64,000 nt of DNA, from the NCBI GenBank assembly GCA_020445745.1, contig JAGRGB010000051.1:7833-71832 (forward strand). The letters run 5' to 3'. The number at the start of each line of letters is the position of its first letter. Position 1 is the stretch's first letter. Both the position numbers and the translations under genes were made by a program. Positions 29,052 to 64,000 of the stretch are shown here, piece after piece. The notes beneath the pieces were generated by a model. The model was not told where the DNA came from. It saw only the letters and a list, made by a program, of their open reading frames with translations, and searched no databases. This DNA comes from Rhodocyclaceae bacterium. GTDB lineage: Bacteria; Pseudomonadota; Gammaproteobacteria; Burkholderiales; Rhodocyclaceae.

Positions 29052-29055
29052 GGTG

Positions 29056-30403: not shown

Positions 30404-30426
30404 CAGCGTCAACAGCACGACGGCGG

Positions 30427-31522: not shown

Positions 31523-31788
31523 GTCTGTTCTTCGTCGTTGTGATGGCAGGCTGGATGCTGGCACGAGCCGCGGCAAGGCGACGAGCCGCTGCCGTGAACA
31601 CGATCGGGAGCCTCACTATAGCGGCGCCACGCCCATCGAACAACGCCGAGTCGCGCCGGAGCCACGGCGAGCCGCCGGCGACGGCCGCTACAAGCGGCGA
31701 CCGCAGTCGAGCAACCGCCAGGCGACAGGGAATTTCACTGTGCGAAATGCCCGGGCTCGGGTACCATGCGGTCGGACAGATCTCGACC

Positions 31789-37170: not shown

Positions 37171-37340
37171 GAGCTTTCGGTCTCCAGTGCGGTTCTTCGG
37201 TGGCCGGCGCCGTCGCCCGGCCTGTCGGGGTTTCACCCGGTCGCCGGGTGCCGCCGCGGGCCACCGCGACAAGCTTCCTCCGGCCAATATATCCAGTCGC
37301 GCCAGCGGCTTTCGGAGAATTGGTGTTGCAGATGCACGTT

Positions 37341-37368
37341 TTCGCAAGTCGCCCCGGCGTGGCATAAT
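37341..37368 (+). promoter_or_regulatory. candidate sigma-70 promoter for pckG
   Basis: TTCGCA (37341-46), a 16-nt spacer and CATAAT (37363-68). This would give a 5' leader of about 170 nt before ATG 37543. It is a sequence match only. Confidence 0.35.
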
Positions 37369-37542
37369 CTTATGCTTTCGCAGAACCGGAAGCACTTCGT
37401 AGTTTCCGCAAAATGGGGACTCTGCGCGGCGTCGAGCGACCTTCCGGAGCCGACTTGCGCAGCGAGGCTCGGTGGGCCGCCGCGAGGGGGCGGAGCGCCG
37501 GGCCGGGTCCACCAGCCTGCTTTTCCTGGAGACACAGCAAAC

Positions 37543-39387
37543 ATGAATCAGCGCATCGCCGAGGCCGCCATCGCAGCCGCACCGGAGTACGTCCGCCACG
37601 AGGGGCTCAAGCAATGGGTCGCCGCAATCGCCACCCTGACTGAGCCCGGCCGGGTCGTCTGGTGCGACGGATCGCAGGAGGAATACGACCGACTGTGCGC
37701 CGAGATGGTCGAGGCCGGCATGTTGATCAAGCTCAATCCGGAAAAACGCAGGAATTCTTATCTGGCCTGGTCCGATCCGTCCGATGTCGCCCGGGTCGAG
37801 GACCGCACCTTCATCTGCTCCGAGAGCCCCGACGACGCCGGCCCCACCAACAACTGGGAAGACCCGGCGAAGATGAGAAAGACCCTGAGCGAGTTGTTCA
37901 AGGGTTGCATGCGCGGTCGCACGATGTACGTGGTGCCGTTTTCGATGGGGCCGCTCGGATCGCCGATCGCCCACGTCGGCGTCGAGATCACCGACAGTCC
38001 CTACGTCGTCACCAACATGCGCACGATGACCCGCATGGGCAGGGGCGTGTTCGACGTGCTGGGCGCCGACGGTGCGTTCGTGCCCTGCGTCCACAGCGTC
38101 GGCGCACCGCTCGCCCACGGCGAGAAGGACAGCCGCTGGCCGTGCAACCCGGACACCAAGTACATCGTGCACTATCCCGAGACCCGCGAGATCTGGTCCT
38201 ACGGATCCGGTTACGGCGGCAACGCGCTGCTCGGCAAGAAGTGCTTCGCGCTGCGCATCGCCTCGACGATGGCCCGCGACGAGGGCTGGCTCGCCGAGCA
38301 CATGCTGATCCTCGGCGTCGAAAGTCCGCAAGGCGAGAAGACCTACGTCGCCGCCGCATTCCCGTCGGCCTGCGGCAAGACCAATTTCGCGATGCTGATC
38401 CCGCCGAAGTCGTTCGACGGCTGGAAGATCAGCACCGTCGGCGACGACATCGCGTGGATCAAGCCGGGGCAGGACGGCCGCTTCTATGCGATCAACCCGG
38501 AAGCCGGCTACTTCGGCGTGGCCCCGGGCACGTCCGAGAAGACCAACTTCAACGCGATGGCGACACTGAAGGAAAACATCATCTTCACCAACGTTGCGCT
38601 GACCGACGACGGCGACATTTGGTGGGAAGGAATGACCAAGGAAGCGCCGCCCCACCTGATCGACTGGCAGGGCAAGGACTGGACGCCGGAGATCGCCAAG
38701 GAGACCGGCCGCAAGGCGGCCCACCCGAATGCCCGTTTCACGGCGCCCGCCAGCCAGTGCCCGTCGATCGACCCGGCCTGGGAGGATCCCAAGGGCGTGC
38801 CGATCTCGGCGTTCATCTTCGGCGGCCGACGCGCAACCACCGTTCCGCTGGTGTACCAGGCCTTCAATTGGAACTACGGCGTCTATATGGCGGCAACCCT
38901 CGGCTCGGAGACCACGGCCGCGGCCTTCGGGGCTCAGGGCGTGGTCCGTCGCGACCCGTTTGCGATGCTGCCGTTCTGCGGCTACCACATGGGCGACTAC
39001 TTCAATCACTGGTTGAAGATGGGTCACGTCATCGAACAGACACCTAAGATCTTCTGCGTGAACTGGTTCCGGATGAACGAAAAGGGCCAATTCATGTGGC
39101 CCGGCTTCGGCGAGAACATGCGCGTGCTGAAATGGATCGTGGACCGCGTCAAGGGCCGGGTCGGTGCCAAGGAGACCGCCCTCGGCTGGATGCCCAAGTT
39201 CGACGACATCGACTGGAACGGTGCCGAGGTTACCCGGGAGGAATTCGAGGCCTTGACCCGCGTCGATGCCGAAGCCTGGAAGACCGAACTCGAAGGCCAC
39301 AAGGAGTGGTTCGACAAGTTGCAGGATCGCCTGCCGCGACAGATGATCCTGAAGCGCGAACTGTTCGAGCTGGCCCTGTCGGACTGA
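37543..39387 (+). CDS. pckG: phosphoenolpyruvate carboxykinase (GTP)
   Basis: 614 aa from ATG 37543. Motifs: FPSACGKTN (kinase-1a P-loop), [19 protein letters not shown] and NWF. It is colinear with GTP-type PEPCK. Confidence 0.97.
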
Positions 39388-39412
39388 GGAGCACCCTGCC
39401 GCAGCCACGAAC

Positions 39413-39444
39413 AGGCCGGGCACAGCCCGGCCTTGTCGTATCTT
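39413..39444 (+). terminator. intrinsic terminator downstream of pckG
   Basis: AGGCCGGGC-ACA-GCCCGGCCT forms a perfect 9-bp stem (39413-39433). A T-rich tail TGTCGTATCTT follows. Confidence 0.6.
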
Positions 39445-39489
39445 GCCTGCTGGCGCACGATGTGCGCGATCGACACCATCCCGCGCCCG

Positions 39490-40650
39490 ATGTTTCCAAC
39501 TGCCGCCCTGCGCTGCCGACAGATCCAGCCGTTCCACGTGATGGAACTGCTGCGCCGTGCCCGCGAACTCGAGGCCGAGGGCCACGACATCGTCCATATG
39601 GAGGTCGGCGAGCCCGATTTCCCGACCCCGCGGCCGATCGTCGATGCCGCCACCCGCTTCCTCGCCGCCGGCCAGGTGCAGTACACCGGCTCGCTCGGAC
39701 TGCCGGCGCTGCGGGAAGCGATCGCCGGCCACTATCGGGAGCGCTTCGGCGTGGATGTCGATCCGCGGCGGATCGCGGTCACCCCGGGGGCCTCGGGCGC
39801 GCTGATGCTGGCCATCGCGGCACTGACCGATCCCGGCGACGTATGGCTGGTCCCGGATCCAGGCTATCCGTCCAACCGCCACTTCGTACGTGCATTCGAG
39901 GGGGTTGCGCAGGCGCTGGCGGTGTTCGCGGAAACCGCCTTCCAGCCGACCCCGGAGCAGGTCTCCGCGGCGTGGTGCGAGCGCTGTCGCGGCCTGATGG
40001 TGGCGAGCCCCGCCAACCCGACCGGCACCCTGCTGGATGCCACCGCCTTGGCGCCACTCGCCGAGGCGGTACGCGCGCGCGGCGGCGCGCTACTGGTGGA
40101 CGAGATCTATCAGGGGCTCAGCTACGGCGTGGAACCATCGACCGCGCTCGCCCTCGGTCAGGATCTGTTCGTCGTGAACAGCTTCTCGAAATATTTCGGC
40201 ATGACCGGCTGGCGGCTCGGCTGGCTGGTGGTGCCGGAGGGGTTCGAGCGGCAAATCGAAAAGCTCGCCCAGCACTTCTTCATCTGCCCATCTACGGTGG
40301 CCCAGCACGGCGCTCTGGCCGCGTTCGCACCAGGTACCCGCGACATCCTCGAGGCGCGGCGCGCCGAGTTCGCCGAGCGGCGGGATCTGCTGCTGCCGGC
40401 ACTCGAAGACCTCGGCTTCAAGATACCGGCGCGGCCGAACGGTGCCTTCTATGTCTATGCGGACGTCAGTGACCTCGACGACGACAGCGAGGCCCTCGCG
40501 CGGCGCCTGATCGAACACGCGGGGGTTGCAACCACGCCGGGCCTCGACTTCGGCAACCGCCAGCCACGTCGCTACCTGCGCTTCGCCTACACCACGTCTG
40601 CAGCAAGGCTCGAGGATGGGCTCGAGCGCATCGCGCGCCTTGTGCGCTGA
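39490..40650 (+). CDS. PLP-dependent aminotransferase, class I (AspC/AlaC-like)
   Basis: IQPFHVMELLRRARELEAEGHDIVHMEVGEPDF is typical of the family, and the PLP lysine is in NSFSKYFGMTGWRLGW. ATG 39490 is preferred, with ATG 39460 possible. TTG 39433 lies inside the terminator hairpin. Confidence 0.88.
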   Translation: MFPTAALRCRQIQPFHVMELLRRARELEAEGHDIVHMEVGEPDFPTPRPIVDAATRFLAAGQVQYTGSLGLPALREAIAGHYRERFGVDVDPRRIAVTPGASGALMLAIAALTDPGDVWLVPDPGYPSNRHFVRAFEGVAQALAVFAETAFQPTPEQVSAAWCERCRGLMVASPANPTGTLLDATALAPLAEAVRARGGALLVDEIYQGLSYGVEPSTALALGQDLFVVNSFSKYFGMTGWRLGWLVVPEGFERQIEKLAQHFFICPSTVAQHGALAAFAPGTRDILEARRAEFAERRDLLLPALEDLGFKIPARPNGAFYVYADVSDLDDDSEALARRLIEHAGVATTPGLDFGNRQPRRYLRFAYTTSAARLEDGLERIARLVR

Positions 40651-42611: not shown

Positions 42612-42662
42612 ACTGCTCAGTCGTAGCGGACAGCACCGCGAACATTGAAAAGGAGAATCACC

Positions 42663-43163
42663 ATGAAACGCGTCCAGCAAGGCTTCACCCTCATCGAACT
42701 CATGATCGTGGTTGCGATCATCGGCATCCTGGCAGCCGTCGCGCTGCCGGCCTACCAGGACTACACGGTCCGTGCCCGCGTGGCAGAAGGTATGTCCGCC
42801 GCGTCCGCCGCCAAGATCCAGGTCGCCGACGTCCTCGCCTCCGGCAACCCGCAGGGCGCCGCCACCGGCTACGCCACCGGCTGGACCGCACCGGCCGCGA
42901 CGACCAACATCACCAGCGTCGGCATCGACGCCACCACCGGCGTGATCACCATCACCACCACCGCTGCTGCGGGTGGCGGCACCCTGACCTTCACCCCGAA
43001 CGCGCCGATCAGCGCCGCCCTGCCGGCTGGCAATGCCGCCTTCACGCCGCCCAGCGACGCCGTTGCCTGGCGCTGTGCCGCCGCTGGCGCCGGCGCCAAC
43101 GGTTTCGCCGGTGTCAATGCGGGTTCGCTGCTGGCCAAGTACGCGCCGTCCGAGTGCCGCTGA
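42663..43163 (+). CDS. pilA: type IV major pilin
   Basis: 166 aa from ATG 42663, with AAGGAG 8 nt upstream. The class III leader is MKRVQQG|[29 protein letters not shown]-terminal Cys pair (WRCAAAG...APSEC) forms the disulfide loop. Confidence 0.94.
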
Positions 43164-43191
43164 TCTGAAAGACTGGCTTCGCCAGACCCCG

Positions 43192-43221
43192 AAAGGCCGC
43201 GCGAGCGGCCTTTTTCGCTTT
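43192..43221 (+). terminator. intrinsic terminator after pilA
   Basis: AAAGGCCGC-GCGA-GCGGCCTTT forms a perfect 9-bp stem, followed by TTCGCTTT. A run of five T spans the end of the stem. Confidence 0.7.
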
Positions 43222-43308
43222 GGGGTGTCGCGCCGGGGGCGCTGAAGAACGGGCAGCATCGTGCCGTAATCGTTGCAGACATCCGCATCGCCCGAGCCGA
43301 CATCTGCC

Positions 43309-44106
43309 ATGACCGCGACCCGATCACGACGCATCCGCGCCTTCCTGCTGCACCTCTCGTCCAGCCTGCTGCTCGCCGGCGGCTTCGCCGCCGCGACCTA
43401 CTTCCTGTGGTATCCGTCGCCACTGCTGGCGATCCAGGGCGGGCTGTCGATCATCGCCCTGCTGCTCGCGGTCGACACGATCCTCGGGCCGCTGCTGACC
43501 CTGCTGGTGTTCAAGCCCGAAAAGGCCCGCCGCGAACTCGCCACCGATATCTCCGTGATCCTGGCGCTGCAGCTCGGTGCCTTCGCGTACGGTGCCCACG
43601 CCGTGCTCAGCGAGCGCCCGGCCTTCCTCGCCTTCGCCTACAGCCAGTTCTACGTGGTGCGTTCCGGCGACGTCAGCGGCAAGGCCGCGGCCGAGGTCGG
43701 CGACGCGCCGCGTTTCGGCGCGCTCGGCCCGCGCGTGGTGTTCGCCAGCATTCCCGACACAGCGCTGAAGAACGGCACGGCCCTGCTCGCCGCTGCAATG
43801 GGCGACCCGTCCTTCGCGCTCGATGCCAGCCGCTACCGCAGCAAGCCGGACGACCGGGCGCGACTCACGCGCGAGTCCCTGCTGGCGGCAGATGTCCCGT
43901 TGGCGGTCCGCAGCCGTGTCGCGGAACTGGCGGTCGCCAGCGGCACCGCGGCCGACGACGTCGCCCTCTACCAGGTGCTGGGACGCATCGCACCCGCACT
44001 CGCGGTACTTCGTCTGTCGGACGCCAAGCTGCTGGGAATCCTGGCCATCGATCGGCGCGGCAGCGCCGCGACGCTTACGGCAAAATCGGCGTCTGCCCGC
44101 CGCTGA
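43309..44106 (+). CDS. membrane protein downstream of pilA, putative TfpX/TfpZ-like pilin accessory protein
   Basis: About 265 aa from ATG 43309. It has three N-terminal TM helices (FLLHLSSSLLLAGGFAAATYFLWYP, IIALLLAVDTILGPLLTLLVF, ISVILALQLGAFAYGAHAV) and a soluble domain of about 165 aa. The family assignment rests on position and topology as I recall them. Confidence 0.5.
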   Translation: MTATRSRRIRAFLLHLSSSLLLAGGFAAATYFLWYPSPLLAIQGGLSIIALLLAVDTILGPLLTLLVFKPEKARRELATDISVILALQLGAFAYGAHAVLSERPAFLAFAYSQFYVVRSGDVSGKAAAEVGDAPRFGALGPRVVFASIPDTALKNGTALLAAAMGDPSFALDASRYRSKPDDRARLTRESLLAADVPLAVRSRVAELAVASGTAADDVALYQVLGRIAPALAVLRLSDAKLLGILAIDRRGSAATLTAKSASARR

Positions 44107-44121
44107 CTGCCACCGCCGGGG

Positions 44122-45512
<1,391 letters not shown>

Positions 45513-45516
<4 letters not shown>

Positions 45517-47087
45517 GGCTGACGCTTCCCAGTGAGACAGAAATGCCCGCCCGGCGCGTTGTCGCCGACTTCGAGGCTGGCCTGATTAGCATCGGCAAGT
45601 TCACGGGCAATATAAAGGCCCAGCCCGGTCCCCTTCGAATGGGTGGTGAAGAAGGGCTCGAAGATCTGGCGGCGGACCTCGGGACTTATGCCGCCGCCAT
45701 CGTCGACGATATGGAGCGCGATGCGGTCGGAGCCGACGGCTTCGGTGTAGAGTCGGATCGAACCCGGCGCGCCCGAACAATAGCGCCGCGCATTGCCGAG
45801 CAGGTTCCACATGATCTGGTTGAGGTGGGCGCGATCGAAGGCGAGAGTGTCGCCAGGGGCGAACTCGAGCGCAAACAACACCGCCTCGTGGTGCTCGTGG
45901 ACCGTGAACTCCTCGATGAATCCCGTCAGGAATACCTGCAGATCGAGGGCTTCGACGAGTACCTGCTCACGACGGCCGAGGGCCAGCACGTCGCGCACCA
46001 GTCGCTCGATGCGATGGGAGTTGTCGTTGATGATGCGGATCAGCCGGGCCCGCATGTCCGCGCGCTTTTCCTCTGCCAGCAGATCGGCCGCGTGGGTCAC
46101 GGCGGACAGGGGGTTGCGAACTTCGTGGGCGATGCTGGCGGTCAGGCGCCCGAGCGCCGCCAGCTTCAATTGCTGGGCCTGGGCCTGAATCTGTGCGAAA
46201 TCCTGCATGTAGATCAACCGGTCGCCGGTCTCGCCGACGCCACCGATGGCACGACACAGCAGCGCCCTGGGGCCGACCGCGATGACCATCGGTTCGGCGC
46301 CGGCGGCCAGCTCTGCCACCTCCGCCGACCATTGCACGAGATCGTCACCGGCGACGACGCCGCCACCGAGCCATTCGGCCGCCCGCGGGTTGAGCTGCCG
46401 CACCCGGCGGTCGTCGCCGACCACCAGCACGCCGTCCGGCAGATCCCGGATGATGTGCGCGTTGAGGGCTTGCTGGCGCCGCAGGGCGGCGCCCCGCTGG
46501 CGCGCCAGTTCCTCGTTGTCGCGTGCCCGCAGCGCCAGCATGCGCGATACCACCGCCACCGAGAAGAAGCCGACGCACAGCAGCCCGACCGCGAAGAAGT
46601 CGCCGGCGCCACTGCTGTAGACGTAGCGCCAGGCGTTCTCGCCGAGCACCGCGACCGAGGTCAGGGCGGCAAAGAACAGCACCAGCCGGCCGGCGGCGAT
46701 CAGGCCGGCGGCCGCCAGCACCACCAGCATCAGGATCGGAATGCCGCTGCGGTAGCCGCCGCTCGACCACAGGAACATCGCCAGCACGACGATGTCGATC
46801 AGCGTCTGGATCGCCACCAGCCGGTTCAGCCCCAGCCGGCGCGCGGCGTCGGGAAAGCCCAGCAACAGCGTCGCGGCGAGGTAGACGCCGGCGGCAATGC
46901 GAAAGACGGCGGGGGAGAAGGCACCGAGTTCGAGCGCCCGACCGGCGACCAGGAAGCCGCCGGCGATCACCAGCCGGAACAGGTTGAAATAGCGCAGCGA
47001 CTTCCAGCGCGTGTGGTCGAACTCGAATTCGTCGGCGGTGCTCACGCGTGCCCGTCGCGATGCAGGCGCTGGTGCTCGGGCGAACAA
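45513..47087 (-). CDS. pilS: sensor histidine kinase PilS
   Basis: The N-terminus is polytopic with six helices. A PAS-like region is followed by the H-box (ASIAHEVRNPLSAV) and HATPase motifs (DDGGGI, GTGLGLYIAREL). The stop overlaps the pilR start (ATGA-type). Start is TTG 47087 or GTG 47045. Confidence 0.88.
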
Positions 47088-47278
47088 TAACCGATCCCGT
47101 CCACGATCAGGGCCTCGCTCTCCGGCACGTGCACGCCGCAGTGGGCACAGGCCACCATGCGCTCGCCGCCAGCCGGTCGCGACTGGCGCTTGCGCAGGCG
47201 ATCGGAGGTCCGGACGAAGACGCGGCGGACGAAATAGATGCCGGCCAACAACAGGAGGAACAGGATCAGGGTTCGCAC
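47042..47278 (-). CDS. small membrane-anchored Cys/His protein (PP0621-family-like) upstream of pilS
   Basis: One TM helix (LILFLLLLAGIYFV) and a basic linker. The C-terminal motif is CAHCGVHVPESEAL...GYCSPEH. The TGA stop at 47042-44 overlaps GTG 47043-45 of pilS. Start is GTG 47278 or TTG 47308. Confidence 0.6.
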   Translation of the reverse strand: MRTLILFLLLLAGIYFVRRVFVRTSDRLRKRQSRPAGGERMVACAHCGVHVPESEALIVDGIGYCSPEHQRLHRDGHA

Positions 47279-47330
47279 GGCTGACGGGCAGGCTGCAGGT
47301 GGCGCCAAGTCTAGCAGAAGGGCGTTGGCA

Positions 47331-54297: not shown

Positions 54298-54612
54298 TCA
54301 GGTGATCACCTCGACGATCTCGACGCCCATTTCGTATTCGCCGCCCGGCGTCGGGTGACAGCGACGCACGCACACGCGTACGTGCAGAGGCGCGATCGCC
54401 TTGGCACCACCGGGCGAGGCCACCTCGACACGCAGCCGTTCGCCATCGCGCGGCACGTAGGCGCTGATCAGGGTCATGCCGCCGACCGCAAGATCGGTGC
54501 ATCGGGCCGTCACCGGCCGCAGTTGCCCGGGCACATGGACCGCGGCTTCGATGCCCCCGACCGGAATCCTGCGGCCGCTTCTGCGCTCGCTTTCGGCCTT
54601 GCGTCGATCCAT
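54298..54612 (-). CDS. PilZ-domain protein
   Basis: 104 aa from ATG 54612, with a perfect GGAGG 4-5 nt upstream. The RxxxR motif is in ERRSGRRIPV, and DLAVGGM corresponds to D-x-S-x-x-G with Ser replaced by Ala. Confidence 0.7.
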   Translation of the reverse strand: MDRRKAESERRSGRRIPVGGIEAAVHVPGQLRPVTARCTDLAVGGMTLISAYVPRDGERLRVEVASPGGAKAIAPLHVRVCVRRCHPTPGGEYEMGVEIVEVIT

Positions 54613-54765
54613 CTTTCCTCCTGATACGCTCTGTTTCACGGTCGCTGCCCGGACACCGCCGGCCAGCCACCGACGACCAAGGAATGCACTGACCGGCGAT
54701 CGGCCCCGGCCACCACGCCGGGCGCCGGCGCCCAGCGCACCGATTTCGGCGCGTGCGCGCCGCGG

Positions 54766-56367
54766 CTAGGCTTCGAGGGCGGGTTCGCTGGCTTTCGACC
54801 CGGGTACGCACGTCAGCAACAGCATCGACACGTCGTCGTGATGGGCCTCGCCCTCGAGATGCGTCTCGAGGGCTTGCCGAACGGCTTCCACCCTTCTTTC
54901 CGGCGCCGACACCGCCAGCGTCTGTTCCAGGCATTCCTGGCCGAACTCCTCGCCATCGGAGCGGTGGGCCTCGATCAGACCATCCGAATAGGCGAGGATC
55001 TGCTGGCCCGGTTCGACCGCGAAGCGTTCGGTGCGCCCGGTGTCCTCGTCGTTGTCGGTGATCCCCAGCGGCACGTGATCCGAGGCGAAGCGCCGCGCGA
55101 TGCCGCCACCGCGGTCCAGCAGCAGCACTTCCGGGACACCCCCCACCCACAGCTCCACCTCGCGGGCATCGGCCGACAGGCAGAATATCGCCGCGCCGAC
55201 GAAGCGGCCGACCGGCAGCCCGCCGCGCAGTTGCGCGTTGATCGCGGATACCAGGTAGGAGAGGCTGACCTCGCGGGCGACTTCGGTATAGAACAGCGAC
55301 AGCACCGGCAACACGCTGATCGCCGCCGCGAGGCCGTGGCCGGTGGCATCGGCCAGCATCGCGAACGTCCTCCCGCCCGGCGAGCGCGCCAGCATGATCA
55401 GGTCGCCCGAGAAGCGCGTCGTTGCCGACACCGAATACTGCACCCGGGGATCCTTCAGCCAGTCGCCATGGATCTGGCGTTCCATGATGGTACGCGCCAG
55501 TTCCTGCTCGCGCTCCTGCTCGGCGTACAGCCGCTCGAGACGGGCGCGGGTCTCGGCCCGTTCACGCGCCTGCCGCTCCCGCTCGGTGACATCGCGCACG
55601 ACGCCGACGAACAGGTGGCGGTCGGGCAGGTCGATATCGGTGATGCCGAGTTCGAGGGGAAACAGCGCGCCGTTCTTGCGCCGGCCGGTCACCTGCCGGA
55701 TCTTTCCGACCCCGCCCCCGGAGCCGGTCTCGAGGTAGCGCCGGATATAACCGTCATGGGCCGAATGGTGTGGTTCCGGCATCAGCATGGAGACGTTCTT
55801 ACCGATCAGTTCCGCCGGACCATAACCGAACTGGGCGCAGGCGGCGCGGTTGCACGAGTGCATGATGCCGTGCTCGTTGATCGTTATCAGACCGTCGATC
55901 ACCGCATCCGAGATCGCGCGGATCTGCTCCAGCGACTCGACCACCGCGCGCTGCATCATCAACTGGCGCGACACCGAGCGCATCTTGGCCGCAAAGACCG
56001 CAAAGGAGATCGGCTTGACCAGGTAGTCGTCCGCCCCGGCGTCCAGGCCGGCCGCGATGTCGGAATCGTCGGCCAGCGCCGACAGCATCACCACCGGCAC
56101 CCAGTTGCCCTCCTGCAGCCGGCGGATGCTGCGCGTCGCCTCGAAGCCGTCCATGACCGGCATCATCACGTCCATCAGCACCAGATCCGGCCTGTCCGAC
56201 TGGAAGCGGGCCACCGCCTCCTTGCCGTCCGCGGCCATGATCGCCGTGAACCCCAGCTTTCGCAGGAACACGTCGAGCATGCTGCGGTTCGACGCCGTGT
56301 CGTCCGCGACCAGCACCTGCAGGTTCGTGGCCTGCGGCAGCTTGCCTTTGTCGAGGGTCATTTCCAT
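54766..56367 (-). CDS. response regulator receiver - PAS - PP2C/SpoIIE serine phosphatase
   Basis: 533 aa. REC: VLVADD...LVLMDVMMPVMDG...YLVKP. PAS: AVIDGLITINEHGIMHSCNRAACAQFGY. PP2C: FSGDLIMLARSPGG...LADATGHGLAAA...AYSDGLIE...HHDDVSMLLL. Confidence 0.9.
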   Translation of the reverse strand: MEMTLDKGKLPQATNLQVLVADDTASNRSMLDVFLRKLGFTAIMAADGKEAVARFQSDRPDLVLMDVMMPVMDGFEATRSIRRLQEGNWVPVVMLSALADDSDIAAGLDAGADDYLVKPISFAVFAAKMRSVSRQLMMQRAVVESLEQIRAISDAVIDGLITINEHGIMHSCNRAACAQFGYGPAELIGKNVSMLMPEPHHSAHDGYIRRYLETGSGGGVGKIRQVTGRRKNGALFPLELGITDIDLPDRHLFVGVVRDVTERERQARERAETRARLERLYAEQEREQELARTIMERQIHGDWLKDPRVQYSVSATTRFSGDLIMLARSPGGRTFAMLADATGHGLAAAISVLPVLSLFYTEVAREVSLSYLVSAINAQLRGGLPVGRFVGAAIFCLSADAREVELWVGGVPEVLLLDRGGGIARRFASDHVPLGITDNDEDTGRTERFAVEPGQQILAYSDGLIEAHRSDGEEFGQECLEQTLAVSAPERRVEAVRQALETHLEGEAHHDDVSMLLLTCVPGSKASEPALEA

Positions 56368-56418
56368 CGATCGATCACACCCATCCAGGGAGGTTGCGAG
56401 GCACCGGCGGGAACACGG

Positions 56419-57318
56419 TCATGCCCGACTCCCGCCCGCGATCGCGCGTACGCGGTTGCCGCATCCCTCGTAATCGAGGCTGGCGAACGCCAACTGTCTG
56501 GCCAGCGCGATCCCCCGGCCGTTGGGGGCGAAGGCCCGCTCGGGATCGAATTCCAGGTACTGGTGCCAGTCGAAGCCCTGGCCCTGGTCCTCGATCAGGA
56601 ATTCCCAATCATCGTCCTTGCGCTCGACCGAAACCGTGACGCTGCGGCCGCGGTACTCGGGCAGGGCGAGGCGGCGCTCCACCTCCTCATGCCATCGGTC
56701 CACTTCCTTGAGCCGTGATTTCTCCGCGAAGCTGATCTCGAGATTGCCGTGCTCGATCGCATTGATCATCAACTCCGACAAGCCCATCGCACCAACCTGC
56801 GGCTCCGGGAACAGGTTGCCGAGCAGCGAGGCCAGGCGCTGGGCATCGTCCAGCGTGCGGATCCTGAAGGAGGCGGACTCGGCCAGTGCGATCACCGTGT
56901 TCTGGACGTCCACGTCCTGTGCCGTGGCGTGTCGCAGGGCGGAGTCTTCGAGGGCAGCACGGACGATCGTCTGCAACGCCTCCAGGTCGAAGGGCTTCGT
57001 CAGATAGTAGTGGGCGCCTGCCTGAAGACCTTCCCGCACCTGATCCGGCGACGCCGCCGCGGTCTGCATGATGACCGGGATGTCGGTCAGGCGCGCGTCG
57101 GCCTTGATGCGACGCAATACCTCGATGCCGTCGATGCCACGCATCATCCGATCGAGGACCACCAGGTCGAAGTGATTGCCGGGCCTGCGCAGCAAGTCCC
57201 AGGCATGCTCGCCACTGTCGGCCGTCACCAGCCGATAGCTCGGATCGTCCAGTGTCTCGGCGATGATGTCGAGATTGAACGGTTCGTCATCCACCACCAG
57301 TATTTGCATCTCGCTCAC
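56419..57318 (-). CDS. response regulator receiver fused to an RsbW/SpoIIAB-type GHKL ATP-binding (Ser kinase-like) domain
   Basis: 299 aa. REC: ILVVDDEP...LVVLDRMMRGIDG...YLTKP. GHKL N-box ELMINAIEHGN, G1 EDQGQGFD and G2 GRGIALAR. Confidence 0.85.
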   Translation of the reverse strand: MSEMQILVVDDEPFNLDIIAETLDDPSYRLVTADSGEHAWDLLRRPGNHFDLVVLDRMMRGIDGIEVLRRIKADARLTDIPVIMQTAAASPDQVREGLQAGAHYYLTKPFDLEALQTIVRAALEDSALRHATAQDVDVQNTVIALAESASFRIRTLDDAQRLASLLGNLFPEPQVGAMGLSELMINAIEHGNLEISFAEKSRLKEVDRWHEEVERRLALPEYRGRSVTVSVERKDDDWEFLIEDQGQGFDWHQYLEFDPERAFAPNGRGIALARQLAFASLDYEGCGNRVRAIAGGSRA

Positions 57319-57328
57319 GTCAGATCTC

Positions 57329-60300
57329 TCACACGATTTCTATGACGGCATGTTCGAGCGGCAGCAATATCTCGAACCGTGCGCCACCCTGGTCCTCGTT
57401 GCTCGCCGATATGGTGCCTGCCTGGGCCTCCACGATCCTGCGCGAAATAGCAAGTCCCGATCCGGTACCGCCGGCGCCGCGCTTGGTCTCCGAGCTCTGC
57501 ACGAATTTCTCGAAGATCGACTCGAGCTCCCCGTCGGGAATGCCGATCCCATCGTCCACTACGACCAGACGAGCGAAATGTGTAGTCCCGGTCGCCGGGT
57601 CGGAACCCGCGCACGGGAGTTCGACCTGGTCGAGGACGATCCGGATGCGCCCGCCGGCCGGGGTAAACCGGGCTGCATTCGACAACAGGTTGCCGACCAC
57701 CTGCCCGGTGCGCTCCGGGTCGCAGCGAACGCTCAGCGAGCAGGTCCGATCGAAATCGGATTCGACCCGGTGCGAGGCCATCGACACGCCGTGCTCTTCC
57801 AGCGCATCGGTGACGATCTCGACCAGATCGTGGCTGCCCATCCGCAGGCACAGGTGGCCCGACTCCAGTTTCGCCAGATCGAGCAGATCATTGAGCATGT
57901 CGAGCAGTCGCTCGCCGCTCTGGCGCACCCGGCGAAAATACTCGTGCAGCCGCTCCGGCGGCAGACGCTCGCCGCGACTTTCGCCGAGTCTGGCGTAGCT
58001 CAGGATCGCATGCAGCGGCGTACGCAACTCGTGGGACATGTTGGCGAGGAAGGACGACTTGGCGACGTTGGCAGCCTCGGCGGCCTCCTTGGCCGCCCGC
58101 AGGTCTCGGGTCTGCTCCCTCACCATTTCGGACAACTTGTCGCGATGGCGCCGAAGTTCGTCCTCCGCCCGCTTCAGGTCGGACACGTCGGTCGCGCTGC
58201 CGATGAAGCCGAGCAGCGAACCGTCCGCCTCGACAATCGGATCGGCGGTGGCCATCATCCAGCGGTAGCCGCCTTCGCGATGCCGCAGGCGGAACTCGAT
58301 GCCGAACGCCCGCCGAGATTCGATTCCGGCGTACTCGGCTGCCGCGCAGCGAACCCGATCCTCGGGATGGACGGCGTCGAGCCAGCCGCCCCCCAGACCA
58401 TCGATCAATTCGGTGCCGGTGAATTCGAGCCAGGTGCGATTGAGGTAGGTGACCCTGGCGTCCGGCGCCAGCATCCGGATCAGCACCGGCGCCGAGTCGG
58501 CGAGGCGCCGGAAGCGCTCCTCGGACTCGCGCAGCGCGGCCGCCGCGCGGCGCTGCTCGGTGATGTCGGCATGGCTGCCGATGACCCGCAGCGGACGACC
58601 GTCGGCATCGCGTTCGACGACCCGCCCGCGATCAAGCACCCAGATGTAGCCGCCCTCCCGCTGGAGCATGCGATATTCGTTGCGATAGAAGCCGGTATGC
58701 CCCTCTAGATGGTCCTGCACGCCATGGGCGACCTGGGCCAGGTCGTCCGGGTGGATGCGCGACCGCCATTCGTCGAGGGATGGGCCGATCTCGTCGCGGT
58801 GGTAACCGAGCATCTCGCACCAACGCGGCGAGTAATAGACTTCGTCGCGCGCCACGTGCCAGTCCCACACGCCCTCGCCCGAGCCCTCGAGGGCGAACTG
58901 CCAGCGTGCCTCGCAGTTGCGCAGAGCCTCTTCGTCGCGCCGTCGGGGCGACACGTCGCGCGCCACGCCGAGCACGCCGCAGGCCATGCCGGCGCGGTCC
59001 CGCACAGCCACCGTGCGCATTTCGGCGTACCATTCGCCGCCGTCCGGAAAGCGCAGCGCCTCTTCATGCACGCACGGCACCGGCGACGCTTCCGCCGAGC
59101 GGTCGGCGCCGCGCAGCCAGGCAGCCACGATCGGCGGCAAGCACTGTTCGTCGGTGCGGCCCAGCAGCGCGCCCGCGTCACTGCCGGCGAGGCGTTCGAA
59201 GGCCGCATTGCAATAGCGGTAACGACCGTGCCGGTCCTTGAACCACACCATGTCCGGCATTGCCGCCACCAGCGCGTTCAGGACGGCCTCTTGCTCTTCG
59301 AGTTCGCGCTCCGCCCGCCGCTGCCCGCTAATCGTGCGGATCGCCATCAGCACACCGCCGTCGCCGCCGGGAACGACACGTGCCCGATAGGCATGCAGAC
59401 CGCGACCCGTGTCTTCGTCCGAGAATTCGAGCGACTGCCAACGCCCCGCGGACAAGGTCGTGCACGCCGCCTCCCGCAGGCGCGCAGCCGTCGCCGCAGG
59501 CAGCGTCTGTTCGAGCGTTCCGCCCACCGAGCGTTCGCCGTCGAAGGGGCCGCCGCTCGTCCCCGGCTCCGGCCTGCACCAGCGGATGCGCAGGTCGGCA
59601 CCGAGTTCGAGCAAGGTGTCCGGGCTGGCCTGCAGCAACGCCGCGCGGGCCAGTTGGGCGGCACCCAGCGCCTCCTGTGCCTCGCGTGCCTGGCTCACGT
59701 CGTCGAGGCAAGCCCACCACCACGTGCCCGCCTCACCCCGTGGCAGCCGAGCCAGGCGGAGGCGTATCCGCCGGCGGGTTCCGTCCGCGGCCGGCATGTC
59801 GAATTCACTACCGCCACGATCGCTGTCGTCGCGGCACAAGGACGCCGCCAGTCGCGACGTTTCCGCCAGGATCGCTGTCGCGCCACGGCCCGCGGCTTCG
59901 GTGACGGACTCATTGTCGCCATCGATCAGCGCGCGAAAGGTCGGGTTGCCGAACACCACGCGCCAGTCCGCATCGAGCAGGGCGATGCCCAGCGGCAGCA
60001 CCTCCAGCAGGGTATCCAGTTGTTGCCGCAATGCGCGGCACTCGTCGATCTGCCGACTGACCGCGGAGACGTCCCGAACCACGCTCAACACCGCCGGCTC
60101 GCCATCCGCATCGGTGATCGGCAGATGCTCGAGCAGCCAGCATTGGCGGCGGTCGCCGGCATCGGCGAAACGCACTTCGGCAATGTCTGCCCGTCCCTTG
60201 GCGATCACCCCGGCGACACCGGACGACATCGCCTTCGCCAGTTCGTCGTCCCCCCGGCGCACGCCGCCCGGCTGCGCCCGCTGCGCCGAGCCGGGCAAGG

Positions 60301-61774
60301 CCTTCGCGGCCTGGTTGCTGATCCGGCAGCGCTGGTCCGCGGCGCGCACCGTCACCGCGAACGGCAAGGCGTCGACCACGCGGGCCAGGAAGCGCTGCGA
60401 TTGCAGGATCAGCGCCGTGCGCCGACTCTCGGCGCTGACATCCGAGATCGCTCCGACGATCCTGCCGATGTCGCCGGAATCGGAGCGCTCGACCCTGGCG
60501 CGAATGCGCAGCCGCTGCGCCAACGGGGCGGCCGGGCGGGCGCCCACTTCGACATCGAGGGCGATGTCGGATTCGAGCAAGCCGCGCAGCGACGCGAGCA
60601 GCGAACGCCTTTCGTGTCTGTCCACCAGGCGTAGGATCGGGCGCACAGTGGTCGCGCCGTCCCAGCCGGCACCCTCGAGGAGCTTGCGGGTACGGCAGTT
60701 CAGGTAGATCTCGCGGCATTGCGGCGACCATTCCCACACCCCCTCACCGGCCGCGTCGAGCGCCAACGCAAGCCGCGTCTCGCGCTCGCGCAGGCTGCCA
60801 TCGATGCGGGCCGCCGCCTGCAGCGCATGGCGACGACTGGTACCGCCGACATGGACCAGCCATGCGAGCAGCCCGCTCAAGGCCATGCCGACGATCGACG
60901 TCAGCAACGACGACACGCCGGCCGCCGCGGAAATCTGCCCATGCATCAGCAGGCGATAGCTTCTGGCTCCAACCGTCAGCGACCGTTCCCCGCCGTCGAT
61001 GCGTGGGATGTCGCCGGCGTCGTCGAACACGACGACCGGCTCCGGCTGGGTCGTGTCGAGCAGCCGCAGGCCGCCCGCGGCATGCTCTCCGGCCAACAGC
61101 CGGCCGAAGCTCACCACGACGAACGCCACGGCCCTTCCGCCACTGCGCGAAGCATCGCGCTGCTGCGCACGATCGACCGGCATCAGCATCAATGCTTCGA
61201 GCACGTTGCGCGGCGCCGCCGCAAACAGGCGGACCGGCGCGCTCAATGTCGGCATGCCGAGCTGGGCCGCGCGGTTCGCTGCGGTCACGACCTGCGGCAT
61301 CGAGCCCAGTCCTCTGGCTGCCGCGGGATGGTCCGCCAGCGGCCCGGCCGAAAGCTGTCGCAATCTCAGGGTGCCGTCGTCGTCCTGCTGCAGCAGGCCG
61401 GTCGCGAGCACCCCGTCGCGGGGTGACAACTCGCGGCCGGCGCGCTCGACATAGCGCTGCCAGAGTGCCTCGTCGGCCTCCGGGCTGGCGGTCAGGAATG
61501 CAGCGGCGGAGACCAGGAACTGCCGGTAGGTGGCGAATCGCGAAACCAGTCCGGTGGCGATCCGGCCACTGCTCTCGGTCGCCTGCCGCCGGGCCTCGGC
61601 ATCTTCGCTGCCCGCCTGACGCAGCGTGACGCCCAGCACCAGAAATGCACACAGCACGAAGATCGCGAGCGCCGGCGGATGGGGACGCCCGACGATGGCG
61701 ACACCGTCGCCCGGCGGGCGGAGCGACGGGGACGCGACCGCCCGGCTACAGGGCTCGTGGAGGAAGAAATGCAT
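57329..61774 (-). CDS. giant sensor histidine kinase: CHASE-like periplasmic domain, about 7 PAS/PAC repeats, HisKA and HATPase (no receiver)
   Basis: 1481 aa. Two TM helices flank a loop of about 250 aa. Seven PAC-type endings are visible (SDVSAES, RDVSAVS, DDVSQAR, RTISGQR, RDVSPRR, ADITEQR, TDVSDLK). The H-box is FLANMSHELRTPLHAI and the G-box is GGTGSGLAISRRIV. Confidence 0.9.
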   Translation of the reverse strand: MHFFLHEPCSRAVASPSLRPPGDGVAIVGRPHPPALAIFVLCAFLVLGVTLRQAGSEDAEARRQATESSGRIATGLVSRFATYRQFLVSAAAFLTASPEADEALWQRYVERAGRELSPRDGVLATGLLQQDDDGTLRLRQLSAGPLADHPAAARGLGSMPQVVTAANRAAQLGMPTLSAPVRLFAAAPRNVLEALMLMPVDRAQQRDASRSGGRAVAFVVVSFGRLLAGEHAAGGLRLLDTTQPEPVVVFDDAGDIPRIDGGERSLTVGARSYRLLMHGQISAAAGVSSLLTSIVGMALSGLLAWLVHVGGTSRRHALQAAARIDGSLRERETRLALALDAAGEGVWEWSPQCREIYLNCRTRKLLEGAGWDGATTVRPILRLVDRHERRSLLASLRGLLESDIALDVEVGARPAAPLAQRLRIRARVERSDSGDIGRIVGAISDVSAESRRTALILQSQRFLARVVDALPFAVTVRAADQRCRISNQAAKALPGSAQRAQPGGVRRGDDELAKAMSSGVAGVIAKGRADIAEVRFADAGDRRQCWLLEHLPITDADGEPAVLSVVRDVSAVSRQIDECRALRQQLDTLLEVLPLGIALLDADWRVVFGNPTFRALIDGDNESVTEAAGRGATAILAETSRLAASLCRDDSDRGGSEFDMPAADGTRRRIRLRLARLPRGEAGTWWWACLDDVSQAREAQEALGAAQLARAALLQASPDTLLELGADLRIRWCRPEPGTSGGPFDGERSVGGTLEQTLPAATAARLREAACTTLSAGRWQSLEFSDEDTGRGLHAYRARVVPGGDGGVLMAIRTISGQRRAERELEEQEAVLNALVAAMPDMVWFKDRHGRYRYCNAAFERLAGSDAGALLGRTDEQCLPPIVAAWLRGADRSAEASPVPCVHEEALRFPDGGEWYAEMRTVAVRDRAGMACGVLGVARDVSPRRRDEEALRNCEARWQFALEGSGEGVWDWHVARDEVYYSPRWCEMLGYHRDEIGPSLDEWRSRIHPDDLAQVAHGVQDHLEGHTGFYRNEYRMLQREGGYIWVLDRGRVVERDADGRPLRVIGSHADITEQRRAAAALRESEERFRRLADSAPVLIRMLAPDARVTYLNRTWLEFTGTELIDGLGGGWLDAVHPEDRVRCAAAEYAGIESRRAFGIEFRLRHREGGYRWMMATADPIVEADGSLLGFIGSATDVSDLKRAEDELRRHRDKLSEMVREQTRDLRAAKEAAEAANVAKSSFLANMSHELRTPLHAILSYARLGESRGERLPPERLHEYFRRVRQSGERLLDMLNDLLDLAKLESGHLCLRMGSHDLVEIVTDALEEHGVSMASHRVESDFDRTCSLSVRCDPERTGQVVGNLLSNAARFTPAGGRIRIVLDQVELPCAGSDPATGTTHFARLVVVDDGIGIPDGELESIFEKFVQSSETKRGAGGTGSGLAISRRIVEAQAGTISASNEDQGGARFEILLPLEHAVIEIV

Positions 61775-61868: not shown

Positions 61869-62093
61869 TCACCCGCAAGGGAGCGAATCCTTGACGCCGA
61901 GCTTGCGCAGGAATATCTCGAGGGGACAGAAGCGGGTGAAACCACTCTGGAACAGGTTGGCACCGACGAAGGCGGTGAACCACAGGAAGTTGGCATTGAC
62001 GAACAGCGGCGAACCCTCGACGCCGAGGGCCAGCGAGATCAGCACGAAGGCTCCGGCGAAGATCCGGACGAACTGGTTGACTGTGAGATTCAT
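61869..62093 (-). CDS. DUF2892 (YgaP-like) small membrane protein
   Basis: 74 aa from ATG 62091-62093, forming an ATGA overlap with the RND stop. The sequence NQFVRIFAGAFVLISLALG...FVGANLFQSGFTRFCPLEIFLRKLG is the DUF2892 pattern. Confidence 0.7.
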   Translation of the reverse strand: MNLTVNQFVRIFAGAFVLISLALGVEGSPLFVNANFLWFTAFVGANLFQSGFTRFCPLEIFLRKLGVKDSLPCG

Positions 62094-64000
62094 GGTCTTG
62101 CTCCTTCTGGGTCGGCCTGCGCCTCGTGCCTGTGGCGGGCGGCGTAATAGAGAACCGGGATCACCACCAGCGTCAGCACGGTGGATACGAAGATGCCGAA
62201 GATCAGGCTGATCGCAAGGCCGTTGAAGATCGGGTCGTCGAGAATGAACAGGGCACCGATCATCGCCGCCAGCGCGGTCAGGCCGATCGGCTTGGCGCGT
62301 ACGCTGGCCGCCCGGATCACGGCTTCGGCAAACTCGATCCCCTGACTGCGCTGGTGGTTGATGAAATCCACCAGCAGGATGGAGTTGCGCACGATGATGC
62401 CGGCCAGCGCGATCATGCCGATCATCGACGTCGCGGTGAAATGGGCGCCCAGCAGCGCGTGGCCGGGCATCACGCCGATCACCGTGAGGGGGATCGGCGC
62501 CATGATGATCAGCGGTACCAGGTAGCTCTTGAACTGGGCCACCACCAGCAGGTAGATCAGCACGAGGCCGACCGCATAGGCGATGCCCATGTCGCGGAAG
62601 GTCTCGTAGGTGACCTGCCACTCGCCGTCCCATTTGATGCTGTAGCCGGCGTACGGATCGGCCGGTTGCGAGATGAAGTACTCGTCGACGCTGCCGGCCA
62701 GGCGGGGACCGTCGAGCTTGATGCCGGTGATCGCGCTGCGCATGTCGAACATGCCGTACAGCGGCGAATCCAGCGCACCGCCCATGTCGCCGGTGACATA
62801 GACGACCGGCAGCAGGTCCTTGTGGTAGATGACCTGCTCGCGCCGGCTCGGCCGTTCCTGCACGACCTCGGAGATCGGCACCAGGTGTCCGTCACGCGCC
62901 CGTACCCGCATCGCCAGCAACTCCTCCAGGCGCGCCTGGCGGCTCGCCGGCAGCTGCACCCGGACGGGAATCTCGTATTTGTTGTCGCTGCCATGCACCG
63001 GCGTCACCGACTCGCCCGCCAGGCCCATGCGCAGCACTTCGACGACATCGGCCTGGGCGACACCGATCAGCGCCGCCCGCGCCTGGTCCACCCGCAGCAC
63101 GATCTTCGGCGCGACCTCGTCGATCGAGTCGTCGATCGCGATGATGTCCGCGGTGGTTTCGAAGACATCGCGGATCTCTTGCGCCACCGCGATCTGGCCC
63201 TGGTAGTCGGGGCCATAGACCTCGGCGACGATCGGCGCCAGCACCGGCGGCCCGGGGGGCACCTCGACGACCCGCGCGTTGCCGCCGTAGCCGCGGGCGA
63301 TCTCGGCGACGCGGTCGCGCACCGCGATCGCGATCTCGTGGCTGGAGCGCGCCCGGTGATGCTTGTCGGCCAGATTGACCTGGATGTCGCCGAGTTCCGG
63401 CGCGGCGCGCAGATAATACTGGCGCACCAGGCCGTTGAAGTTGATCGGGCTCGCGGTGCCGGCGTAGGTCTGGTAGTCGGTGACTTCCGGCACCTGGGCG
63501 AGATGGGCACCGATCTCCTGCAGCACGCGCTGGGTCTGCTCGACCGGCGTGCCGACCGGCATGTCGAGCACCACCTGGAACTCGCTCTTATTGTCCAGCG
63601 GCAGCATCTTCAGCGCCACCAGCTTGACCACCGCCAGCGATACCGAGGCCGCGATCAGGCCGAGGATCAGCAACCACAGCAGGCCGCGATTACGCCCGCC
63701 GCGGCGCCGGTCGAGCAGCGGCCCCATGATGCGACGGAAGACGCGGTCGAGGGTCGCCGTCATGCGGTCCTCGCCGTGCCCGTGCGCCGGCGTCTTGTTC
63801 AGCATCAGCTGCGCCAGCCACGGCGTCACGACGAAGGCCACCGCCAGCGAGATGAACATCCCCATCGACGAATTGATCGGGATCGGGCTCATGTAGGGTC
63901 CCATCAGGCCACTGACGAAGGCCATCGGCAGCAAGGCCGCGATCACCGTGAAGGTGGCCAGGATGGTCGGCCCGCCGACCTCGTCGACGGCACCCGGAAT
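62090..64000 (-). CDS. RND efflux transporter permease (AcrB family), C-terminal two thirds; 5' end beyond window
   Basis: The frame is open to the window edge. RND TM7-12 and porter-domain features are present (GIAYAVGLVLIYLLVVAQFKS, IGMIALAGIIVRNSILLVDF). Confidence 0.93.
   Translation of the reverse strand: MPGAVDEVGGPTILATFTVIAALLPMAFVSGLMGPYMSPIPINSSMGMFISLAVAFVVTPWLAQLMLNKTPAHGHGEDRMTATLDRVFRRIMGPLLDRRRGGRNRGLLWLLILGLIAASVSLAVVKLVALKMLPLDNKSEFQVVLDMPVGTPVEQTQRVLQEIGAHLAQVPEVTDYQTYAGTASPINFNGLVRQYYLRAAPELGDIQVNLADKHHRARSSHEIAIAVRDRVAEIARGYGGNARVVEVPPGPPVLAPIVAEVYGPDYQGQIAVAQEIRDVFETTADIIAIDDSIDEVAPKIVLRVDQARAALIGVAQADVVEVLRMGLAGESVTPVHGSDNKYEIPVRVQLPASRQARLEELLAMRVRARDGHLVPISEVVQERPSRREQVIYHKDLLPVVYVTGDMGGALDSPLYGMFDMRSAITGIKLDGPRLAGSVDEYFISQPADPYAGYSIKWDGEWQVTYETFRDMGIAYAVGLVLIYLLVVAQFKSYLVPLIIMAPIPLTVIGVMPGHALLGAHFTATSMIGMIALAGIIVRNSILLVDFINHQRSQGIEFAEAVIRAASVRAKPIGLTALAAMIGALFILDDPIFNGLAISLIFGIFVSTVLTLVVIPVLYYAARHRHEAQADPEGARP

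Follow-up and report, generated by a model that had tools for sequence, protein, structure and literature searches.

A four-gene operon of a Rhodocyclaceae bacterium encoding a sensor kinase, a putative TciR/LvrC-type regulator, a PP2C phosphatase with a probable haem PAS domain and a PilZ-type protein

A stretch of 64,000 nucleotides (nt) from a Rhodocyclaceae bacterium (GenBank assembly GCA_020445745.1, contig JAGRGB010000051.1, positions 7,833 to 71,832 of the forward strand; hereafter the window), taken from a metagenome scaffold of 80.8 kb, was analysed for a signalling locus at positions 54,298 to 61,774. Four co-directional open reading frames (ORFs) lie there on the minus strand, to which all operon coordinates below refer: a CHASE/PAS histidine kinase (HK), a receiver joined to an RsbW-like ATPase (RW), a receiver-PAS-PP2C phosphatase (RP) and a PilZ-type protein. 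All were found at the coordinates, in the order and with the domains that an earlier reading of the bare sequence (the initial annotation) had given them. RW begins with a GTG codon and lies, as had been noted, 10 nt past the HK stop; RP follows after 51 nt and the PilZ gene after a further 153 nt. No internal promoter-like or terminator-like site was seen within the four genes, which was counted, together with the short gaps, for operon structure, and the four genes are a real bacterial signalling operon.

RW (56419..57318) was characterised from Pfam, its homologues and a match to PDB entry 9QIH as a receiver followed by an RsbW/SpoIIAB-like Bergerat ATPase/kinase domain of the TciR/LvrC type. 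From the GTG it is 299 amino acids (aa) long; the public gene call uses an ATG at 57309, 9 nt further on, which gives 296 aa, and the NCBI label is 'ATP-binding response regulator'. The receiver (aa 6-119; 56962..57303; Response_reg, 95 bits in Pfam) contains a DD pair at aa 10-11, the presumed acceptor Asp at aa 56 in VVLDRMM, T86 and K108 (299-aa numbering). All of these are invariant in an alignment of 15 homologues, and the receiver is intact, as had been said on first inspection.

The C-terminal domain of RW (aa 178-292; 56443..56787) was delimited by Pfam, alignment and Foldseek and contains the N-box ELMINAIEHGN, a helical insertion of ~30 aa, the G1 motif DQGQGFD and the G2 motif GRGIALAR. 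The Glu and Asn of the N-box and both G motifs are invariant in the same 15 homologues, which suggests that ATP chemistry is under selection. HATPase_c_2 (PF13581) was matched with 40 bits against a cut-off of 27.4, and HATPase_c (PF02518) with 17.5 bits, under its cut-off. The domain was modelled alone with AlphaFold (pLDDT 81) and the model was compared with known structures using Foldseek. LvrC (9QIH) was the top match (E 2e-8, TM 0.67), followed by SpoIIAB (1TH8, 1TIL, 1TID and 1L0O; E 3e-4 to 8e-4) and then by RsbW (6M36, 6M37) and UsfX of Mycobacterium tuberculosis, with histidine-kinase catalytic domains appearing only from E 0.047. Because Pfam prefers HATPase_c_2 and Foldseek ranks LvrC, SpoIIAB, RsbW and UsfX above histidine kinases, the module is of the RsbW/SpoIIAB type and not a histidine-kinase remnant. 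Motifs, profile and model here agree with the initial annotation, which had called the module RsbW-type and had named a degenerate histidine-kinase remnant as the outcome that would overturn it.

RP (54766..56367; 533 aa) was resolved by ORF, Pfam and phmmer evidence into a receiver, a PAS domain of the FixL haem type, a coiled-coil linker and a PP2C (SpoIIE) domain, in agreement with the receiver-PAS-PP2C layout proposed for it. The receiver, its own as had been proposed, was placed at aa 18-125 (55993..56316) by a Response_reg match and by the strings LVADD, LMDVMM, MLSAL and LVKPI. The SpoIIE domain (aa 330-519; 54811..55380; PF07228, 114.8 bits) is full length, covering profile positions 1-190 of 192, and contains DATGHG, YSDGL and HHDDVS, which were taken as the metal-binding motifs.

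The nature of the PAS domain (aa 147-268; 55564..55929) had not been recognised in the initial annotation. In a phmmer comparison with seven FixL haem-domain sequences from the PDB it was aligned over the whole haem domain at E 1.3e-24 to 1e-22, and the NCBIfam FixL model scored 115.7 bits over aa 133-280. H200 of BjFixL (SRHDSYISRY) aligns with H204 of RP (SAHDGYIRRY), which places the proximal His in HDGYIRRY (aa 204-211; 55735..55758), and this His was kept in all 13 PAS-containing RP-family sequences aligned. Equivalents of FixL R206 and R220 are also present; KIRQVTG aligns with IGRIVTG, and the distal Arg equivalent lies in GKIRQV (aa 221-226). The domain is therefore of the FixL haem type and probably binds haem, and such a domain suggests an oxygen or gas input to the phosphatase. 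FixL of Bradyrhizobium and Sinorhizobium resembles RP over the whole haem domain, with the His and Arg equivalents kept; the output of FixL, however, is a histidine kinase, whereas that of RP is a PP2C phosphatase. A full-text search of the open-access literature returned no paper on a haem-PAS PP2C.

HK (57329..61774; 1481 aa) was delineated from the ORF, Pfam, hydrophobicity and the H-box as a first transmembrane segment, a periplasmic CHASE loop, a second transmembrane segment, a PAS array, HisKA and HATPase_c. Hydrophobic segments at ~aa 33-53 and ~289-309 enclose the loop that matches CHASE (aa 145-246; 61037..61342; PF03924, 28.3-30.4 bits, cut-off 25), so that HK has the make-up of a CHASE-domain sensor kinase, with CHASE between two transmembrane segments and the kinase core behind. 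HisKA (aa 1238-1306) and HATPase_c were both found by Pfam, and the H-box SHELRTPL (aa 1247-1254; 58013..58036) holds the phospho-accepting His. No receiver domain was found in HK by Pfam, which makes it a non-hybrid kinase, and Pfam, hydrophobicity and motif together bear out the earlier description of its core and of its CHASE-like loop. The PAS count was set too high. When fragments were scanned separately, three PAS domains passed the Pfam cut-off (~aa 838-946, 979-1067 and 1086-1197; together 58184..59263), three more were sub-threshold (~aa 467-573, 585-625 and 715-820) and no Pfam domain was detected in aa 310-470; the about seven PAS/PAC modules first counted are thus an upper estimate, of which three are secure.

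The closest named relatives of RW belong to the Rhodocyclaceae/Zoogloeaceae (Nitrogeniibacter, Zoogloea, Denitromonas). Full-length RW gave 6,043 matches in the 90% collection, some of them perhaps through the receiver alone, and more than 582 RW-type loci were found in species-representative genomes. The profile of the C-terminal domain retrieved 6,354 clusters at 50% identity with E<=1e-3, 2,920 with E<=1e-10 and 1,094 with E<=1e-30. The arrangement had at first been regarded as unusual; with 1,094 clusters at the strictest threshold and two experimentally studied members, the receiver-RsbW architecture is instead that of a large family.

Gene neighbourhoods were compared in 82 related loci, and each count was limited to loci with enough flanking sequence. 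A histidine-kinase core gene stands directly upstream of RW in 49 of 78 loci, and in 42 of 78 the next gene after RW encodes a SpoIIE domain and shares its strand; both partners are present in 32 of 75, so the HK-RW-RP order is common. In loci of the Azonexus/Dechloromonas type, where sequences were judged by eye, RW stands alone amid ubiquinone and cell-shape genes, and in three of them a receiver-SpoIIE gene lies ~2.6 kb upstream of RW, next to phaC. Directly after RP, many relatives carry a gene for a NasT-like regulator with a receiver (REC) and an ANTAR domain and an NrtABC-like nitrate/ABC transporter operon (just downstream of RP in L007, L010-L013, L018-L020, L027, L051 and L086; between RP and PilZ in L005 and L009); these genes are not in the window.

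Fusion proteins bear directly on the relation between the genes. In one metagenome-assembled genome (GCA_020445805.1; L090:715-6132) HK and RW form an in-frame fusion in a single ORF of 1805 aa, which may be genuine or may stem from a fault in the assembly. Among ten unusually long proteins carrying the RW-type C-terminal domain, six fuse it to PP2C: P0276 has the layout REC-HATPase_c_2-REC-PAS-SpoIIE, exactly the gene order of the window, P0147 the same layout with no PAS detected, P0157, P0161 and P0181 are REC-HATPase_c_2-SpoIIE, and P0197 is SpoIIE-REC-HATPase_c_2. Such fusions constitute Rosetta-stone evidence that RW and RP act together. Because some relatives join the two in one protein, RW and RP are most likely an opposing kinase/phosphatase pair, and the initial proposal that they form one functional unit gains support both from these natural fusions and from the adjacency in 42 of 78 loci. 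Two of the ten proteins carry cyclic di-GMP (c-di-GMP) enzymes (P0171, REC-HATPase_c_2-GGDEF-EAL; P0262, EAL-REC-HATPase_c_2), which hints that the family has been wired repeatedly to c-di-GMP turnover, and the remaining two have sensor domains (MHYT-PAS, dCache-PAS) in place of the receiver.

The fourth gene (54298..54612, ATG at 54612) encodes a PilZ-type protein of 104 aa, assigned from its orthologues and motifs, with RRSGRR at aa 10-15 and DLAVGG at aa 40-45. Its length, its distance of about 150 nt from RP and its own ribosome-binding site, GGAGG (54617..54621, 4 nt upstream of the ATG), were seen in the sequence as first described. The window protein itself gave no match to the Pfam PilZ model even at E<=1; of its 10 orthologues (44-83% identical), 7 are matched by PF07238, the lowest E being 5e-7, and NCBI names the orthologues PilZ. 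RRxxxR is invariant across the orthologues, and the D/E and GG of the DLAVGG position are conserved. DLAVGG fits (D/N)x(S/A)xxG, the accepted PilZ consensus, and the motif, which had been described as slightly degenerate, is hence not really so.

Only eight homologues of this PilZ protein were found in a collection of 5.8 billion proteins. Its gene takes fourth place in the closest clade, separated from RP by 32-59 nt. Among the 82 related loci it was present in two, L005 (Nitrogeniibacter) and L009, with an nrtABC-like operon between RP and PilZ, and was not detected in the others. The PilZ protein is a lineage-specific accessory, an operon member in the closest clade only, and so narrow a restriction rules it out as the target shared across a family of more than 1,000 clusters. 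The suggestion that it is the output of the system is supported by no more than co-location in one narrow clade.

RsbW-type kinases and PP2C phosphatases of classical partner switching act together with a STAS protein and a sigma factor, and both were looked for. The STAS search used a hidden Markov model built from SpoIIAA, RsbV and TM1442 seeds; it is crude, and divergent STAS proteins could escape it, although it recovered two true STAS proteins (confirmed by Pfam) and a SulP STAS domain. No stand-alone STAS gene came to light in the operon, elsewhere in the window or in the 3.3 kb past its end. Within the window a single STAS domain was detected, that at the C-terminus of a SulP transporter (2438-4120); it was rejected as a substrate, being 50 kb away, fused to a transporter and unlinked in relatives. 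Precomputed Pfam annotation showed no sigma factor within 10 kb of the locus, and phmmer with RpoE and SigB seeds, a crude search giving a weak negative, found none in the window or in the 82 related loci. Upstream of HK, past the window end, are a YgaP-like gene, an RND pump, an MFP, a hypothetical gene and CbiX; the 10 kb downstream of PilZ hold DsbB, a Glycos_trans_3N protein, two dehydrogenases, LEA_2 and other housekeeping genes. The locus therefore has the kinase and the PP2C of the classical RsbW/SpoIIAB system and lacks a linked STAS protein and a linked sigma factor, and the absence first reported for the operon extends to its flanks.

Among the relatives, 2 of the 82 loci carry a stand-alone STAS gene at a distance of up to 10 kb. 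In Asticcacaulis (L071:11175-11507) it directly follows RW and heads a cheY-cheA-cheW cluster, and in L036 (L036:18867-19172) it is 8 kb away, adjoins a PP2C gene and lies beyond a gene group containing cheY; both may belong to the neighbouring chemotaxis-like clusters instead. RW is found near chemotaxis-like genes in three distant relatives, L071, L072 (CheY and CheA) and L036 (a CheY-like gene). In L029 and L032 alone, RP is followed on the other strand by a SpoIIAA-like gene (PF11964/DUF3478), which was dismissed for its rarity. Since 80 of the 82 relatives have no linked STAS, the absence is a family property and not a peculiarity of the window, and no conserved STAS or sigma gene in the relatives' operons turns the locus into an ordinary Rsb module.

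Two members of the family have been studied experimentally. LvrC of Leptospira interrogans (LIC11110, 9QIH) consists of a receiver and a Bergerat domain 'highly similar to RsbW and SpoIIAB' (Nat Commun 2026, PMC13269768). It was crystallised with ADP:Mg, its receiver is phosphorylated by the histidine kinase LvrB, and its authors propose for it the role of an anti-sigma factor that is regulated by the receiver and acts on a sigma factor not yet known (PMC13269768). The profile of RW homologues matched LvrC with E=3.6e-22 (residues 3-293 against 3-291), and LvrC was also the top Foldseek match of the full-length RW model (E=3e-16). Both proteins have ~300 aa and a helical insertion between N-box and G1, and LvrC is phosphorylated by a histidine kinase, as is proposed for RW, and has no known target. 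They differ in that their identity is only ~23-26%, that LvrC is fed by the receiver-controlled LvrB in a phosphorelay and not by an adjacent CHASE/PAS kinase, and that LvrC is regarded as an anti-sigma factor and not as half of a kinase/phosphatase pair. A search for LvrC relatives with a 111-aa LvrC fragment rebuilt from an alignment returned a single 100-aa match; at L091, from a relative and not L. interrogans itself, a frameshifted LvrC-like gene has no PP2C, HK, PilZ or STAS gene among its neighbours.

The other studied case is TciK/TciR of Vogesella indigofera, where a kinase gene is followed by that of a receiver-RsbW-like regulator (J Bacteriol 2025, PMC12826045). Both proteins are needed for indigoidine production and act genetically in one pathway; the authors point out conserved kinase residues and the lack of an RsbV homologue in V. 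indigofera, state that the substrate is not known, and describe homologues as widespread in beta-, gamma- and alphaproteobacteria, Nitrospira and Leptospira (PMC12826045). The taxonomic range of the RW relatives matches theirs. TciR was compared with RW by architecture, gene order and taxonomic range: both systems are betaproteobacterial, with the HK gene directly before that of the regulator, conserved kinase residues and no RsbV homologue, in the case of RW none that is linked, whereas tciKR is a two-gene operon that lacks a receiver-PP2C and a PilZ gene, with a pigment as its output. By its receiver residues, its RsbW-type Bergerat domain and its full-length similarity to LvrC, RW is classed as a TciR/LvrC-type response regulator.

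Receivers that govern an RsbW-type kinase and an opposing PP2C are also found in HsbR of Pseudomonas aeruginosa, SypE of Vibrio fischeri and CrsR of Shewanella. These are single polypeptides, whereas here two ORFs, 51 nt apart, carry a receiver each; RP has in addition a haem-type PAS domain, and the STAS substrate (HsbA, SypA, CrsA) is encoded adjacently there but not here. The HsbR pathway also touches c-di-GMP. Because PP2C fusions of RW relatives exist, the operon may be regarded as functionally an unfused form of the HsbR/SypE/CrsR-type regulators. RP in turn merges the layouts of two Bacillus phosphatases, RsbP (PAS-coiled coil-PP2C) and RsbY (receiver-PP2C). Their target is the STAS protein RsbV, encoded with sigma-B, and no such linked genes occur here; the PAS domain of RsbP is not known to be a haem domain. 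As far as we searched, a kinase and a phosphatase with separate receivers, the phosphatase carrying a haem PAS, are an undescribed variant.

Taken together, we propose a branched two-component pathway that feeds a split kinase/phosphatase pair of the partner-switch type, the best-supported reading and one that we hold to be somewhat likelier right than wrong. HK, with its periplasmic CHASE loop and cytoplasmic PAS array, would autophosphorylate on the His of the H-box and pass the phosphoryl group to the receiver of RW. This step draws support from the adjacency of the two genes, the one fusion and, by analogy, the biochemistry of LvrB and LvrC and the genetics of TciK and TciR. HK probably phosphorylates the receiver of RP as well, as their membership of one operon suggests; the two receivers are 31% identical, which is uninformative on shared kinase specificity. 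The RsbW-like domain of RW would bind ATP and phosphorylate, or sequester, a partner protein, and the PP2C of RP would reverse the phosphorylation made by RW, gated by its receiver and by the FixL-type haem PAS, which would add an oxygen or gas input. The shared target would be encoded outside the operon, as an unlinked STAS-type protein or a non-STAS protein, and the PilZ protein would be an addition peculiar to this lineage, perhaps linking the output to c-di-GMP.

Several points weigh against this proposal. The low identity of the two receivers gives no sign that they share a kinase. The lack of a linked stand-alone STAS gene in 80 of 82 relatives, by the crude search within 10 kb, and the lack of any RsbV homologue in V. 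indigofera according to its authors (PMC12826045) mean that the classical third component may not exist. RW stands without an adjacent phosphatase in ~40% of relatives, as it does in tciKR and at the LvrC-like locus L091, and hence it can work without RP. Kinase activity, moreover, has been demonstrated for no member of the family, and the authors of LvrC favour an anti-sigma role (PMC13269768).

That last role leads to a different explanation, in which RW would be purely a receiver-regulated anti-sigma factor like LvrC, holding an unlinked sigma factor and freeing it on phosphorylation of the Asp, with no part as a kinase, and RP would be an independent oxygen-sensing phosphatase that happens to be encoded in the same operon. 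The model of the LvrC authors, built on structural likeness to RsbW and SpoIIAB (PMC13269768), the many RW genes that have no phosphatase beside them and the lack of a linked STAS gene would all fit. It is hard, however, to explain why a phosphatase adjoins RW in 42 of 78 relatives, and why the two have been fused repeatedly, if they are unrelated; the invariant N-box Glu and Asn, G1 and G2 point to selection on ATP chemistry; and no sigma gene lies within 10 kb of the window locus or, by the crude search, in the 82 relatives. We consider it unlikely.

Similarly improbable is a closed switch of two proteins, in which RW would act on RP as RsbT does on RsbU, activating or inhibiting it by binding, or would phosphorylate it, and the PP2C of RP would act on a distant target or on RW, so that no STAS protein is needed. 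The order of PAS, coiled-coil linker and PP2C in RP, which resembles that of RsbP and RsbU, the RW-RP fusions and the absence of a linked STAS gene are in keeping with it, and RsbT, a paralogue of RsbW, activates the PP2C RsbU by binding (PMC12143880). RW is nevertheless often found where RP is not, and the kinase and phosphatase activities of the fused HsbR and SypE work in opposite directions on a STAS protein and do not act on one another.

Still more doubtful is that the PilZ protein is itself the substrate or output, with RW and RP setting its phosphorylation or binding and so coupling the pathway to c-di-GMP. Its place as fourth gene in the closest clade, at gaps of 32-59 nt, its invariant RRxxxR and the fusion of RW-type domains to GGDEF-EAL (P0171) or EAL (P0262), which links the family to c-di-GMP, are set against a total of eight homologues and against its occurrence near RW only in the closest clade and at two of the 82 loci (L005 and L009), in both of which the nrtABC operon intervenes; PilZ proteins are not known as substrates of RsbW-type kinases. 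An ordinary Rsb module, with STAS and sigma genes immediately beyond the window or sharing the operon in relatives, is very improbable and a linked conventional module is essentially excluded, since only the YgaP-like, RND pump, MFP, hypothetical and CbiX genes upstream and housekeeping genes downstream flank the operon, 80 of 82 relatives have no stand-alone STAS within 10 kb, and the cases in its favour, the true STAS right after RW in L071 and the STAS and PP2C genes 8 kb off in L036, may be parts of che-type clusters. An unlinked STAS protein encoded elsewhere in the genome would fall under the branched pathway proposed above and not under such a module.

The surroundings of the operon were recorded as well. 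Directly upstream of HK (window 62090-64000 and beyond; L001:915-5441) are the gene of the 74-aa YgaP-like membrane protein, the MFP and the RND pump, an arrangement that is syntenic in many Rhodocyclales relatives (L005, L006, L088 and others). A cluster for type IV pilus regulation lies at 42645-47308, at a distance of 7-12 kb from the PilZ gene; it comprises a pilin (FTLIELM signal), a 277-aa ORF with no Pfam match that may encode a pilin accessory protein, the sigma-54 activator PilR, the PilS kinase and a small protein rich in Cys. Another c-di-GMP component of the window is a PAS-GGDEF-EAL protein at 18440-20107, and a multi-subunit cation/proton antiporter cluster of the Mrp/Pha type occupies 24157-31576, both judged by eye from the translations. 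At 34894-39882 a stop-free frame of 1662 codons matches malic enzyme and phosphate acetyltransferase over its C-terminal ~740 aa only, and no gene could be assigned within it at ~37200-39880.

The locus belongs to a large family that was recognised only recently and is mechanistically unsolved, and it is not rare or strange. If haem binding by the PAS domain of RP were confirmed, it would add a new output class to the haem-PAS gas sensors. A phospho-switch independent of STAS, in which an RsbW-like kinase gated by its receiver and a PP2C gated by receiver and haem act on a non-STAS target (here perhaps PilZ) or on each other, is a bolder possibility to which we give little credence; were it true, signals from a periplasmic CHASE ligand, from oxygen or another gas and from c-di-GMP would converge on a single operon, and LvrC and TciR would be kinases and not simple anti-sigma factors. 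Regulators that join a receiver to an RsbW-like domain have only newly entered the experimental literature, through pigment production in Vogesella and, in Leptospira, through a protein acting after the Lvr virulence relay. A receiver-PP2C accompanies about half of the family and is sometimes fused to it, which argues for the RsbW-like domain being an active kinase within a reversible phosphorylation switch, and the partnership with a phosphatase offers a handle on the substrate and a lead on what the TciR/LvrC-type regulators do.

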